A stretch of 5,567 nt of DNA from a virus (lineage: Duplodnaviria > Heunggongvirae > Uroviricota > Caudoviricetes): the IMG/VR virus record IMGVR_UViG_2698536379_000014; one strand, given 5' to 3'. Under the pieces are notes generated by a model that saw nothing but the letters and a program-made list of their open reading frames with translations, did not search any database and was not told where the DNA came from. The stretch's first letter is position 1. Each line of letters opens with the position of its first letter. A program made the position numbers and the translations under genes. Positions 2,691 to 5,567 of this stretch are shown here, piece by piece.

Positions 2691-3560
2691 ATGACCACTA
2701 TTACCAAAGAACGTATTGAATTGTTCATTAAAAATCCGCTTGAAAACGGGCTTACCCGTGGTGAACAAATGGAACTGGCACGGATTGCGCTGGCATCGCT
2801 GGAAGCAGAGCCGGTGGCAAAGATTATAGCTCATTACCCATTAGGGGTTGACGTAGGCAAACAAAAATTCGTACAGGCCATTAGAGAGCTTCCTGACTTT
2901 GGCGGATATCTATTTGCCGCCCCTCCAGCGCCGATAGTGCCGGAAGAAATGTATTGGCAGGATGCGCCAGTTGAAGGCAGCAGCAAAGCGACTGCATACG
3001 CTACAGGCTGGAACGATTGCCGCGAAGCCATGCTTCAGTCCGGAAACTTTCGGGAAAATAAAGATTCGTCAACCAATAATTTTCGGAAAATCCCGGAAGC
3101 GTCAACCAGCTCTCCGGTAACTCCGGCTCTTCTGCCTGGTGGTTTCACCATTGAGGAGGCGAAGGAATTACATGAAGACCTGGTACGCAGCCACATAAGC
3201 AAGGCCTTAAGTGGCGAAAAGATGAAAAAGAAAGATCGCGATGCTGATTTGCGCTGGATTCATGGCGTTATAGTTCAGGCAGCGTGGTTTGTAAAAGCAT
3301 CACTGGAGCAGAATGCACTATCGGGCAACTATCCGGTAACTCCGGATAGTTGGATAAGCTGTAGTGAGCGAATGCCGGATACCAAAACAGCCGTTCTTGT
3401 TGCCAGGGATTTTGGCAGGAAAGGTGACTGGCGAATGAAATGGGCGACTTACATCCCGGGGCATCCTGACGCTAATGATGGGTGGATAATACCTGGTGCG
3501 TCGTGGATACCATCACACTGGATGCCTCTACCAGAACCGCCGCAGGAGGTGCGCCAATGA
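2691..3560 (+). CDS. Phage protein with DUF551-like C-terminal domain
   Basis: 289-aa ORF with AGGAG SD at 2680-2684. The C-terminus (DSWISCSERMPDTKTAVLVARDFGRKGDWRMKWATYIPGHPDANDGWIIPGASWIPSHWMPLPEPP) matches my recollection of the conserved DUF551 signature found in lambdoid phage proteins (ending W-MPLPEPP). The N-terminal two thirds are unrecognised. Stop TGA 3558-3560 overlaps the next ATG (ATGA). Confidence 0.75.
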   Translation: MTTITKERIELFIKNPLENGLTRGEQMELARIALASLEAEPVAKIIAHYPLGVDVGKQKFVQAIRELPDFGGYLFAAPPAPIVPEEMYWQDAPVEGSSKATAYATGWNDCREAMLQSGNFRENKDSSTNNFRKIPEASTSSPVTPALLPGGFTIEEAKELHEDLVRSHISKALSGEKMKKKDRDADLRWIHGVIVQAAWFVKASLEQNALSGNYPVTPDSWISCSERMPDTKTAVLVARDFGRKGDWRMKWATYIPGHPDANDGWIIPGASWIPSHWMPLPEPPQEVRQ

Positions 3561-3640
3561 ACTGGCCTGAAGCATTTGCAATTACAGGCGTTGCTATGGC
3601 TATCGCTTTTTTAGTATATGTTATTTGTCGGTGGGGGTAA
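3557..3640 (+). CDS. Candidate small hydrophobic peptide (27 aa), single predicted TM helix
   Basis: ATG 3557-3559 overlaps the upstream stop (ATGA), with AGGAGG at 3544-3549 (7-nt spacing). Translation MNWPEAFAITGVAMAIAFLVYVICRWG, stop TAA 3638-3640. Too short for the ORF track. Confidence 0.35.
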   Translation: MNWPEAFAITGVAMAIAFLVYVICRWG

Positions 3641-3675
3641 AAACGTTCGCCGGGATTAACACCAAAGGAGGGAAT

Positions 3676-3780
3676 ATGTCGGATGATATATCACTGGCAA
3701 TGGAAGGTGCGCTGGCTGTTGTTGCTGTTGTGGGCGTTTACTGCCTGGTTGTGTTTTTGATGGATCGACTAGGGAACTGA
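3676..3780 (+). CDS. Candidate small hydrophobic peptide (34 aa), single predicted TM helix
   Basis: ATG 3676 with AGGAGG at 3666-3671 (4-nt spacing). Translation MSDDISLAMEGALAVVAVVGVYCLVVFLMDRLGN, stop TGA 3778-3780. Too short for the ORF track. Confidence 0.4.
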   Translation: MSDDISLAMEGALAVVAVVGVYCLVVFLMDRLGN

Positions 3781-3788
3781 ATTCATTA

Positions 3789-3810
3789 CGATATGGGAAT
3801 TCCCATATCG
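3789..3810. promoter_or_regulatory. Perfect 22-bp palindrome (candidate operator or RNA hairpin)
   Basis: CGATATGGGAATTCCCATATCG is an exact inverted repeat, located 9 nt after the small ORF stop and about 12 nt upstream of the predicted hok -35. No U-tract follows on either strand. Confidence 0.4.
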
Positions 3811-3821
3811 GGTAAAAACGG

Positions 3822-3858
3822 TTTGCGGTAAAGCGAGAGTTAAGTAGAATTGCTGCGG
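3822..3858 (+). promoter_or_regulatory. Predicted sigma70 promoter and start site of the hok mRNA
   Basis: -35 TTTGCG/TTGCGG (3822-3828), 16-17 bp spacer, -10 TAGAAT (3845-3850). The predicted start near 3857 coincides with the beginning of the 5' element that is complementary to the mRNA 3' end. Confidence 0.4.
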
Positions 3859-3904
3859 GTGCTTGAGGCTATCTGCCTCAGGCATGAACACCAAAAGGCA
3901 GATA

Positions 3905-3980
3905 GAGAAAAGCCCCAGTTAACATTACGCGTCCTGCAAGACGCTTAACATTAATCTGAGGCCCAATCTATGTCTCACAA
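3905..3980 (-). ncRNA. sok: Predicted Sok-like antisense RNA (coordinates approximate)
   Basis: Minus-strand promoter candidate: -35 TTGCCT (plus coords 4013-4008), 17-bp spacer, -10 TAACCT (3990-3985), giving a start near 3978 and a transcript antisense to the mok SD/start (3957-3972). This matches the known hok/sok layout. The 3' end and terminator could not be defined from sequence. Confidence 0.3.
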
Positions 3981-4182
3981 ATGTAGGTTAGCCTCTTACG
4001 TGCCGAAAGGCAAGGAGAAGCAGGCTATGAAGCAGCAAAAGGCGATGTTAATCGCCCTGATCGTCATCTGTTTAACCGTCATAGTGACGGCACTGGTAAC
4101 GAGGAAAGACCTCTGCGAGGTACGAATCCGAACCGGCCAGACGGAGGTCGCTGTCTTCACAGCTTACGAACCTGAGGAGTAA
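3970..4182 (+). CDS. mok: mok-like overlapping reading frame (70 codons) in the hok leader
   Basis: ATG 3970 with SD TGAGG at 3957-3961 (8-nt spacing), 57 nt upstream of and in frame with the hok ATG, ending at the same stop. Its size matches the ~70-codon mok frames described for hok loci. Whether it is translated as an extended Hok or only serves coupling cannot be told from sequence. Confidence 0.4.
   Translation: MSHKCRLASYVPKGKEKQAMKQQKAMLIALIVICLTVIVTALVTRKDLCEVRIRTGQTEVAVFTAYEPEE
4027..4182 (+). CDS. hok: Hok/Gef-family type I toxin (HokD/RelF-like membrane peptide, 51 aa)
   Basis: Translation MKQQKAMLIALIVICLTVIVTALVTRKDLCEVRIRTGQTEVAVFTAYEPEE. It has the family hallmarks: N-terminal TM helix, LVTRKxLCE motif and conserved C-terminal TGQTEVAVFTAYE. 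From memory it is identical or near-identical to E. coli HokD (RelF). SD AAGGAG 4012-4017 (9-nt spacing); stop TAA 4180-4182. Confidence 0.9.
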   Translation: MKQQKAMLIALIVICLTVIVTALVTRKDLCEVRIRTGQTEVAVFTAYEPEE

Positions 4183-4251
4183 GAGACCAGGCGGGGGAGA
4201 AATCCCTCGCCACCGCTGATGTGTCAGGCATCCTCAACGCACCCGCACTTA

Positions 4252-4277
4252 ACCCGCTTCGGCGGGTTTTGTTTTTT
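4252..4277 (+). terminator. Rho-independent terminator of the hok transcript
   Basis: ACCCGC-UUCG-GCGGGU: 6-bp GC-rich stem with a UUCG tetraloop (4252-4267), followed by TTTTGTTTTTT (4267-4277). Confidence 0.8.
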
Positions 4278-4349
4278 CTGGTCGTTCTGGTTTACAATCC
4301 ATCCGTCAGCCTGAACAACTGGCACCTGCTGCGCCAGCAGAGAAAACAG

Positions 4350-4628
4350 ATGGCGCACGATACCAAATTTTACAATTCGGATAACTCTGCCGCCCCTGCC
4401 AGCAGGCACGGGCGGCGTTCTCATGCATTCAAATCTGACTGGTATCAGCACGACCCCTGCACCGAAGAACAGGCTGAATGGCTGATTCAGTGTTACCGCA
4501 GGCGCGGATACGAGATTAAGAAAGCCCTCAGCCTCGACTACCGTCACTGGATAATCTCCGTCAGGCTTCCTTACTCCGAACGCCCACCGCGTCCGTCCCG
4601 CACATTCCAGCAACGGATCTGGAGGTAA
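4350..4628 (+). CDS. Hypothetical protein (92 aa), in the position of rem in Qin-type prophages
   Basis: ATG at 4350 (translation MAHDTKFYNSDNSAAPASRHGRRSHAFKSDWYQHDPCTEEQAEWLIQCYRRRGYEIKK…), stop TAA 4626-4628. Weak SD. The longer track ORF from 4221 would run through the hok terminator, so the internal start is preferred. The rem assignment is by synteny from memory only. Confidence 0.5.
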   Translation: MAHDTKFYNSDNSAAPASRHGRRSHAFKSDWYQHDPCTEEQAEWLIQCYRRRGYEIKKALSLDYRHWIISVRLPYSERPPRPSRTFQQRIWR

Positions 4629-4629
4629 C

Positions 4630-5567
4630 GTGCGGGTATTACTTCGACCTGTTCTGGTACCGGAACTCGGGCTGGTGGCCCTTAAGCCAGGTCGTGAATC
4701 CATGCAGGTATTTCACAATACCCGGGTACTGGTGGAGCCGGAACCGAAAAGCATGCGTAATCTGCCGTCCGGGGTCGTTCCTGCCGTTCGCCAGCCGCTG
4801 GTGGAAGACAAAACATTGCTGCCATTTTTCAGCGACGAACGAGTGATTCGTGCTGCTGGTGGTGCTGGTGCATTGTCTGACTGGCTGTTGCGCCATATTA
4901 AATCCTGCCAGTGGCCACACGGCGATTATCACCACAGCGAAACTGTCATTCACCGTTATGGTACCGGCGCAATGGTGTTGTGCTGGCACTGCGACAACCA
5001 GTTGCGTGACCAGACCTCCGAATCACTCGGGCAACTTGCTCACCAAAATTTGTCAGCATGGATGATTGACGTCATACGCCATGCAATGAATGGCACGCAG
5101 GAGCGGGAATTATCTCTGGGTGAATTATCCTGGTGGGCGGTCTGCAATCAGGTGGCGGATGCGCTACCAGAGGCAGCATTACGTCGTTCTCTGGGGTTAC
5201 GTGCGGAAAAAATCCGCTCGGTGTACCGCGAAAGCGACATCATACCGGGAGAACAGACAGCCACCAGCATCCTGAAACAGCGCACAAAAAATCTTGCGCC
5301 GCTGCCTCACGCCCACCAGCAAAACCCGCCACAGGAAAAGACGGTGGTAAGCATTGCCGTTGATCCGGAGTCTCCGGAATCCTTCATGAAACGACCTAAA
5401 CGTCGCCGCTGGGTAAATGAGAAATACACACGCTGGGTAAAGACACAGCCGTGTGCGTGTTGTGGTAAGCCAGCGGACGATCCTCATCATCTGATTGGTC
5501 ATGGTCAGGGCGGAATGGGAACAAAATCCCACGATATTTTCACGCTACCGCTGTGTCGGGAGCATCA
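4630..5567 (+). CDS. DUF968/YdfU-like protein with two HNH-like Cys/His motifs (partial, continues beyond window)
   Basis: Frame open from GTG 4630 (GGAGG SD at 4621-4625; alternative ATG at 4702) to the window end with no stop. Motif 1: CQWPHGDYHHSETVIHRYGTGAMVLCWHCDNQLRD. Motif 2: CACCGKPADDPHHLIGHGQGGMGTKSHDIFTLPLCREH. Both look HNH-nuclease-like. The track missed it because it lacks a stop within the window. Confidence 0.75.
   Translation, partial: MRVLLRPVLVPELGLVALKPGRESMQVFHNTRVLVEPEPKSMRNLPSGVVPAVRQPLVEDKTLLPFFSDERVIRAAGGAGALSDWLLRHIKSCQWPHGDYHHSETVIHRYGTGAMVLCWHCDNQLRDQTSESLGQLAHQNLSAWMIDVIRHAMNGTQERELSLGELSWWAVCNQVADALPEAALRRSLGLRAEKIRSVYRESDIIPGEQTATSILKQRTKNLAPLPHAHQQNPPQEKTVVSIAVDPESPESFMKRPKRRRWVNEKYTRWVKTQPCACCGKPADDPHHLIGHGQGGMGTKSHDIFTLPLCREH

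Follow-up and report, generated by a model that had tools for sequence, protein, structure and literature searches.

The closest described relatives of the locus considered here are the hok/mok/sok (parB) system of plasmid R1, the chromosomal hok loci and the cryptic prophage Qin of Escherichia coli K-12. In Qin, hokD (relF) has been reported to occupy the third place in relBEF and to be transcribed together with relBE (PMC3598666, which cites Bech 1985 and Gerdes 1986), and Ramisetty and Sudhakari relate that an ancestral hokD open reading frame (ORF) of about 70 codons was cut to 51 by the integration of relBE (PMC6379469, with reference to Ramisetty & Santhosh 2016). An enrichment of prophages in hok has been described, and overexpressed HokD is reported to be toxic (preprint 10.1101/2025.08.07.668861). 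We analyzed a stretch of 5,567 nucleotides (nt) from the Caudoviricetes record IMGVR_UViG_2698536379_000014 of IMG/VR, hereafter the window, in which a hok gene is followed by a 92-codon ORF and a DUF968 gene. With a probability that we put at roughly 85%, the joint best explanation of this locus is that it belongs to an O55:H7 prophage residing at the Qin site and carrying a complete hok/mok/sok cassette, that the arrangement found in K-12 Qin is derived, and that the 92-codon ORF is a real gene.

The hok/mok/sok cassette and the prophage that carries it

To place the window, its sequence was compared to bacterial chromosomes. Positions 3557-5567 were 100% identical to the chromosome of CB9615 (E. 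coli O55:H7) and of similar O55:H7 strains, and the whole window was identical to a CB9615 prophage located beside rspB, which is the site of Qin in K-12. This prophage reads integrase-xis-exo ... dicB ... a LexA-family repressor (in the CI position) and Cro ... O-like and DUF977 replication genes ... DUF551 ... hokD ... a hypothetical gene ... DUF968 ... RusA ... Q ... lysis genes ... terminase. In the CB9615 prophage locus (L001, whose positions 11135-12004 correspond to window 2691-3560), positions 1-2095 shared 95% DNA identity with K-12 rspB-intQ, covering rspB and most of the integrase gene (intQ is a pseudogene in K-12), and further blocks followed in the same order as in Qin, namely the dicB region (89%), ydfA (92%), hok (98.5%), the 92-codon ORF with ydfU (85%) and the lysozyme gene (84%). 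Integration next to rspB with a Qin-type integrase was thus accompanied by the synteny dicB ... hokD ... ydfU ... Q ... lysis genes expected of a Qin-site prophage. In line with the resemblance to Qin-type prophages noted in the original prediction, these alignments make the window prophage a relative of Qin that shares its chromosomal site and looks intact.

Besides their insertion site, the two prophages share an identical Hok peptide, a hok Shine-Dalgarno sequence, coding sequence (CDS), fold-back inhibition (fbi) element and terminator that are 98.5% identical, and, next in line, the same 92-amino acid (aa) ORF (79% aa identity) and YdfU (88%), with Q further downstream. They differ in that the window has the full hok promoter, leader, mok and predicted Sok and is devoid of flxA-ydfV-relBE and rem, whereas K-12 lacks everything 5' of hok position -14 as well as the replication genes; the window prophage, moreover, harbors RusA between DUF968 and Q. 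The region is a nin-like segment, located in the early-right arm of an E. coli lambdoid prophage from the O55:H7 lineage; like the nin region of lambdoid phages, it is a mosaic of small genes, here between the O-like/DUF977 replication genes and RusA-Q, and carries accessory cargo bounded by terminators. The 92-aa gene and DUF968 stand here where lambda, we presume, carries nin genes of its own.

The product of the mok frame contained a Hok/Gef domain (PF01848, E=3e-23), and the Hok portion was identical to K-12 HokD at 51 of 51 residues. The Rfam hok/sok leader model RF01794 matched window positions 3857-4032 with 121.7 bits (gathering score, 59; model positions 1-157), and the minimum free energy (MFE) fold of 3857-4272 paired the extreme 5' end of the transcript (3857-3868) with 4232-4244, which is the closure expected of tac and fbi. 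On the minus strand, the hexamers TTGCCT (4013-4008) and TAACCT (3990-3985), 17 nt apart, precede a 5' tail and a long hairpin, after which a U-run ends near 3905; a Sok RNA starting near 3979 is predicted from this layout. We read this stretch, at about 3811-4276, as a complete hok/mok/sok type I toxin-antitoxin cassette in which hok is autonomous, having a predicted promoter and leader of its own. The earlier proposal that hok has both was thus upheld by the leader match and the tac-fbi fold, the promoter being hand-read. The likeness to the R1 and chromosomal hok systems extends from the Hok/Gef peptide, the overlapping upstream mok frame and the full-length Rfam leader match to the 5'-3' pairing of tac with fbi and the predicted convergent antisense promoter with its hairpin and U-run; unlike R1, the window cassette sits in a prophage nin-like region, in the same orientation as the early-right operon.

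By homology with plasmid R1, hok mRNA would be transcribed from its own promoter and kept translationally inert by the pairing of 5' tac with 3' fbi, until slow trimming of its 3' end rendered it active. Sok, an unstable antisense RNA made from the opposite strand, would block the translation of mok, and hence of hok, and mark the duplex for cleavage, such that loss of the element or arrest of Sok synthesis would result in killing or growth arrest by the Hok membrane peptide. A Tyr codon of hok (TAC) together with the G that follows it (window 4165-4168) corresponds to the TadA A-to-I editing motif, and TadA editing is reported to recode Tyr to Cys in hokC/D/E mRNAs (PMC5630033).

The distribution of the cassette was next surveyed in 5426 complete E. 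coli genomes, identity ranges and start points being taken from the matches listed. A full cassette (at least 80% of window 3781-4280) was present in 3860 of the 5426 genomes, hok cassettes occurred at a median of 2 sites per genome (10 at most), and hok/sok, the 92-aa gene and DUF968 were contiguous in at least 2412 genomes. The left edge of the cassette was variable, with matches starting at 3810-3814 or at 3834-3839. Just 5' of the hok promoter lies a palindrome (CGATATGGGAATTCCCATATCG) with no U-run after it, directly past which many of the E. coli cassette matches start; it may represent a recombination boundary or a protein-binding site. In locus L074 (positions 1519-2607), and also in L016, the hok leader is split from the hok core by an insertion of about 1.1 kb encoding a 362-aa transposase, which is a disruption of a prophage hok locus by an insertion sequence (IS); a similar insertion match in NZ_CP024131 is annotated as an IS481-family transposase.

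The 92-codon gene between hok and DUF968

The original prediction described the order hok - 92-codon ORF - DUF968, which was confirmed by ORFs and domain matches, and likened it to the K-12 order relB-relE-hokD-rem-ydfU ahead of Q, which the K-12 annotation table bears out. It further considered that the 92-aa product might be homologous to Rem and the DUF968 product to YdfU, and took the absence of both homologies as evidence against itself. The second homology is strong, the two proteins being 88% identical over 313 residues. The first is absent: BLASTP produced no alignment between the 92-aa product and Rem (b1561) at E<=100, PHROG assignment set them apart (1212 for the 92-aa product, 340 for Rem), and the best tblastn match of Rem to the window had an E value of 0.28. 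Identification of the 92-aa ORF as Rem was therefore rejected on these three grounds. The label 'toxin to Rem' carried by the 92-aa homologue of phage vB_EcoS-689R5 was likewise set aside, as no supporting evidence for it was found. The genuine K-12 counterpart is an intact 92-codon ORF located between rem and ydfU and 79% identical over its full length (E=4e-56). In K-12 and in the window alike, this ORF ends in a TAA stop codon followed, after 1 nt, by the GTG start codon of ydfU/DUF968.

To assess whether the ORF is translated, 83 sequences, comprising 81 phage or IMG/VR loci besides the window and K-12, were compared. Its length was exactly 279 nt in 82 of them and 272 nt in the remaining one, and the frame was thus intact in 82 of 83 despite 70-91% protein divergence. 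Variable sites among the 41 distinct full-length DNA sequences were concentrated in the third codon position (30/28/68 by position), and the median pairwise ratio of non-synonymous to synonymous substitution rates (dN/dS) was 0.16, being higher in the N-terminal 26 codons (0.36) than in codons 27-92 (0.11). In the AlphaFold (AF2) model, a disordered N-terminus precedes a beta-alpha-beta-beta-alpha core, with a predicted local distance difference test score (pLDDT) of about 85 in the core and 69 overall; a structure search of this model against the PDB yielded no significant neighbour (best E 0.25). A word-indexed search returned 162 clusters, of which the named ones were all from Escherichia or Shigella, and a profile search of 1.84 billion representatives returned 76 relatives, mostly unnamed proteins of about 66 aa matching residues 27-92. 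Two of the latter could be located, on two contigs each. On one contig the first directly precedes a 290-aa gene that has no Pfam record, and on its other contig it is one gene away from a DUF968 gene; the second was directly 5' of RusA-Q on both contigs.

Taken on its patterns of conservation, the 92-codon ORF is a protein-coding gene under purifying selection. We consider it quite improbable that the ORF is instead a conserved untranslated leader or regulatory region of ydfU. Such an explanation would account for the absence of the ORF from the K-12 MG1655 annotation, for the weakness of its Shine-Dalgarno sequence in the window (AGAG; the original prediction had also called it weak) and for the lack of any Pfam or NCBIfam family covering the 92-aa protein or its relatives, but it is at odds with the third-position variation, the low dN/dS and the preserved frame, with the well-modeled core, and with the fact that the distant 66-aa relatives are called as separate genes at the same position in other prophages.

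The GTG start codon of DUF968 lies 1 nt past the stop codon of the 92-aa gene, and 280 nt past its start in every locus long enough with the exception of L023; the two genes are probably translationally coupled. Given this conserved adjacency and spacing, our best guess is that the 92-aa protein is a partner of the DUF968 protein. A broader proposal, in which the 92-aa gene and its ~66-aa relatives encode a DUF968 partner (a regulator, inhibitor or specificity subunit, with TAA-N-GTG coupling) that was overlooked in K-12, and in which a hotspot dedicated to toxin-antitoxin or defence-type cargo lies behind the hok terminator, is possible but rather unlikely as a whole. Downstream of hok, the 92-aa gene, DUF968/YdfU, RusA and then Q make up a conserved late-proximal module.

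The DUF968 product itself matched PF06147 with E=9e-60. Of the tandem HNH-like motifs that the original prediction attributed to it, the C-terminal one stood, with a strong match to PHROG 96 ('HNH endonuclease') and HNHc_6 scores of 23.5-26.4 bits that fall below the Pfam cut-off of 26.6. The N-terminal motif (C-x-x-P-x-x-D-x-HH ... LC-x-x-C-x-N-x-L) resembles it by eye, but the N-terminal half of the protein had no HNH profile match and an hhalign comparison of the two motif regions gave P=0.14, which leaves it a candidate motif. A PDB sequence search with the DUF968 protein returned no match, and its full-length AF2 model was poor (pLDDT of 45 overall and below 50 in the N-terminal half).

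Breakpoints and origin of the K-12 arrangement

Alignment of the window to Qin, which the original prediction had proposed as a means of mapping the breakpoints, resolved both of them to the base. Homology at high identity (98.5%) was confined to window positions 4013-4276 and resumed, at 85%, from 4333 to the end. The left breakpoint falls between 4012 and 4013, 14 nt 5' of the hok ATG and within the predicted -35 hexamer of Sok; the right breakpoint falls between 4276 and 4277, directly past the hok terminator. Upstream of the left breakpoint, K-12 has the relE stop codon and a 71-nt spacer, and since no homology between K-12 and the window was found anywhere to the left of 4013, the left boundary of the relBE block is unmappable against the window. 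Thus, K-12 has lost the hok promoter, tac, the start of mok and the Sok gene, all of which are present in the window (promoter and Sok as predictions), while its hokD retains the Shine-Dalgarno sequence, the coding sequence, the terminator and an fbi element deprived of its pairing partner. DNA alignment further placed rem on an insert of about 390 bp between the hok terminator and the 92-codon ORF.

The IMG/VR contig L059 is informative in this respect. It carries 2.3 kb at 99.8% identity to K-12 (ydfW'-flxA-ydfV-relBE-'hokD), the relBE block reaching at least to ydfW, and this block is joined to the 92-aa gene through the ordinary 74-nt spacer, without rem. With relBE-'hok but no rem, L059 implies that the relBE block and rem were acquired separately. 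In the genome survey, the K-12 ydfV-relBE-'hokD junction was present in 1172 of the 5426 genomes, its full-length matches listed being 99.9-100% identical, and the hok-only matches listed for the K-12 query, the weakest excepted, all started at query position 672, equivalent to window 4013. Full cassettes were both more widespread than this junction and more diverse (87-100% identity among the matches listed). No intermediate with relBE beside a full hok leader was seen among the matches listed in the survey or in the 80 IMG/VR loci of our locus comparison.

We propose that a 2.3-kb flxA-ydfV-relBE block would have overwritten the 5' half of the hok/sok locus in K-12, deleting the promoter, the mok start, Sok and tac, and leaving hokD (relF) without transcription other than as the third gene of relBEF; rem would have arrived behind the hok terminator on an independent insert of about 390 bp. 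The intact, autonomous form of hok is probably ancestral, as the original prediction had it, because the full locus is commoner and the K-12 junction always occurs at one breakpoint; within the sequence itself, nothing points more strongly to a derived K-12 form than its orphan fbi. On a related matter, a 101-kb E. coli plasmid (H88; NZ_CP173597.1, positions 45512-45995) matches K-12 at 99.6% identity over the ydfV-proximal flank, relB and the first half of relE, after which the sequences diverge; this stretch bears on the proposal that the Qin relBE block came from a plasmid.

The original prediction had envisioned a different course of events, in which a Qin backbone of fixed relBE-hok-rem-ydfU order had its relBE slot refilled by the DUF551 gene and two small peptides, with the 92-aa ORF standing for Rem. 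The shared order hok - small ORF - DUF968, the common chromosomal site and the mosaic flanks of the hok cassette all speak for such a slot exchange. It is nonetheless about as improbable as the untranslated-leader explanation, in that the 92-aa ORF shows no similarity to Rem and corresponds in K-12 to a separate ORF downstream of rem, the relBE block ends within the hok/sok locus rather than at a gene boundary, and the window arrangement is the majority form. Neither was any relic of the displaced genes detected: tblastn of Rem, RelB, RelE, YdfV and FlxA against the window in any frame revealed none (best E=0.86 for RelB; no match at E<=10 for RelE), and the CB9615 locus had no DNA match to K-12 relBE. 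The DUF551 gene and the two peptides accordingly do not fill a relBE slot, since the K-12 block cuts into hok/sok itself, with no homology to its left. What survives of the suggested module exchange at a recombination hotspot is the variability of the cassette edge and of the cargo site, the event in K-12 being a truncating insertion rather than an exchange of slots.

The least probable account is that the full cassette of the window is secondary, a truncated K-12-like 'hokD having been repaired from another hok/sok copy on a plasmid or another prophage, for although donors exist in genomes with several hok copies and the contrast between a hok core at 98.5% and flanks at about 85% identity to K-12 attests to a recent exchange of the core, the K-12 fbi makes sense only with a missing tac partner and the K-12 junction is essentially clonal next to the diverse and more widespread full cassettes.

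Four considerations weigh against our preferred reading of an autonomous ancestral cassette in a Qin-site prophage. The 'sok' model of RF01794 matches the hok-sense strand and hence attests to homology of the leader, not to the existence of a Sok RNA. A consensus promoter scan placed neither the hok nor the Sok promoter above threshold, both having been read by eye. The direction from ancestral to derived form is probable on grounds of parsimony and of the orphan fbi, not of a dated phylogeny. Finally, chromosomal hok loci assayed by others displayed no post-segregational killing (preprint 10.1101/2025.08.07.668861), which makes the role of the cassette in the prophage uncertain.

Cargo on both sides of hok and features of the region

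Upstream of hok, the uninterrupted 289-codon ORF is, in sequence, one intact mosaic ORF made of an N-terminal part matching PHROG 5117/660 and a C-terminal DUF551 domain, which RefSeq/PGAP splits into a pseudogene fragment and a separate DUF551 CDS. The 27-aa and 34-aa ORFs located between DUF551 and hok each have one predicted membrane-spanning stretch and had no family match in domain and PHROG searches; the 34-aa ORF recurs beside hok in about 20 related loci at 91-100% identity. DUF551 and the two small ORFs are nin-type cargo preceding the intact cassette (Table 1).

Downstream of hok, 74 nt separate the terminator from the 92-aa gene in most of the 80 IMG/VR loci, as in the window, while inserts of 455, 745, 1157, 1330, 1915 or 1942 bp occupy this site in some; hok is absent in about 20 of the 80. 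The inserts encode Rem, a lipoprotein-like 130-aa ORF, a ParE/ParD pair, a 272-aa membrane protein, or helix-turn-helix (HTH) and Peptidase_M78 (ImmA/IrrE-like) proteins with an upstream partner. Cargo was found at the equivalents of window 4277-4349 in L004, L005, L032, L043, L051 and L078. Phage mEp460_ev081 has the same rem insert as Qin, and phage vB_EcoS-689R5 a different 130-aa ORF there. The cargo behind the hok terminator may consist of defence or addiction genes. Variability of the sequences flanking hok supports, as far as these comparisons go, a recombination hotspot, yet is typical of lambdoid mosaicism. Further upstream, within the O-like replication gene (94-1059), five tandem 23-nt repeats at 438-553 (consensus CATCAGGTCAAAATG...) look like origin iterons, as in lambda ori.

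Table 1 Coordinates of the features of the hok-DUF968 region (window positions unless an accession or locus is given)
Feature	Coordinates	Strand	Evidence and remarks
DUF551 ORF, 289 aa, C-terminal DUF551	2691..3560	+	PF04448 E=6e-19; PHROG 60; nin-region cargo
27-aa hydrophobic candidate ORF	3557..3640	+	ORF list; ATG overlaps DUF551 stop (ATGA); no RefSeq annotation
34-aa hydrophobic ORF, hypothetical protein WP_001278454.1	3676..3780	+	
Perfect 22-nt palindrome CGATATGGGAATTCCCATATCG, left edge of hok/sok cassette	3789..3810	.	Sequence reading
Predicted hok promoter, TTGCGG-16 nt-TAGAAT	3823..3850	+	Hand-read; ends 6 nt 5' of leader match (3857)
Predicted full-length hok mRNA: leader, mok/hok, 3' fbi, terminator	3857..4272	+	Rfam match and MFE fold
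5' tac element, pairs with 3' fbi; not in K-12 Qin	3857..3868	+	Alignment and fold
Predicted Sok antisense gene	3905..4013	-	Minus-strand sequence and fold; inferred
mok frame, 70 codons, in frame with hok, common stop	3970..4182	+	PHROG 251 'MokW-like host killing' E=8e-33
hok toxin gene, 51 aa	4027..4182	+	Identical to K-12 HokD
3' fbi element; retained partnerless in K-12	4232..4244	+	Alignment and fold
Intrinsic terminator of hok mRNA	4251..4277	+	Terminator scan; high-identity Qin homology stops at 4276
Short spacer, variable cargo site	4277..4332	.	rem here in Qin and mEp460; other cargo in other prophages
92-aa gene, PHROG 1212, conserved upstream partner of DUF968 (best guess), not Rem	4350..4628	+	
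DUF968/YdfU counterpart, C-terminal HNH-like domain	4630..5567	+	Window end cuts gene; full length 348 aa; GTG start
K-12 92-codon ORF	NC_000913.3 1644306-1644584 = L003 13307-13585	-	Not in MG1655 RefSeq feature table

The evolutionary inference that K-12 hokD is an autonomous hok truncated by relBE is correct and already published; it is not new, being stated in PMC6379469 with reference to Ramisetty & Santhosh 2016. The arrangement found in the window is common and its biology known, and it carries little weight as a discovery. The analysis does correct a tempting mis-assignment, in that the small ORF next to hok is not Rem; it supplies base-exact breakpoints for the K-12 rearrangement, and it flags a conserved 92-codon gene that is missing from the MG1655 reference annotation.

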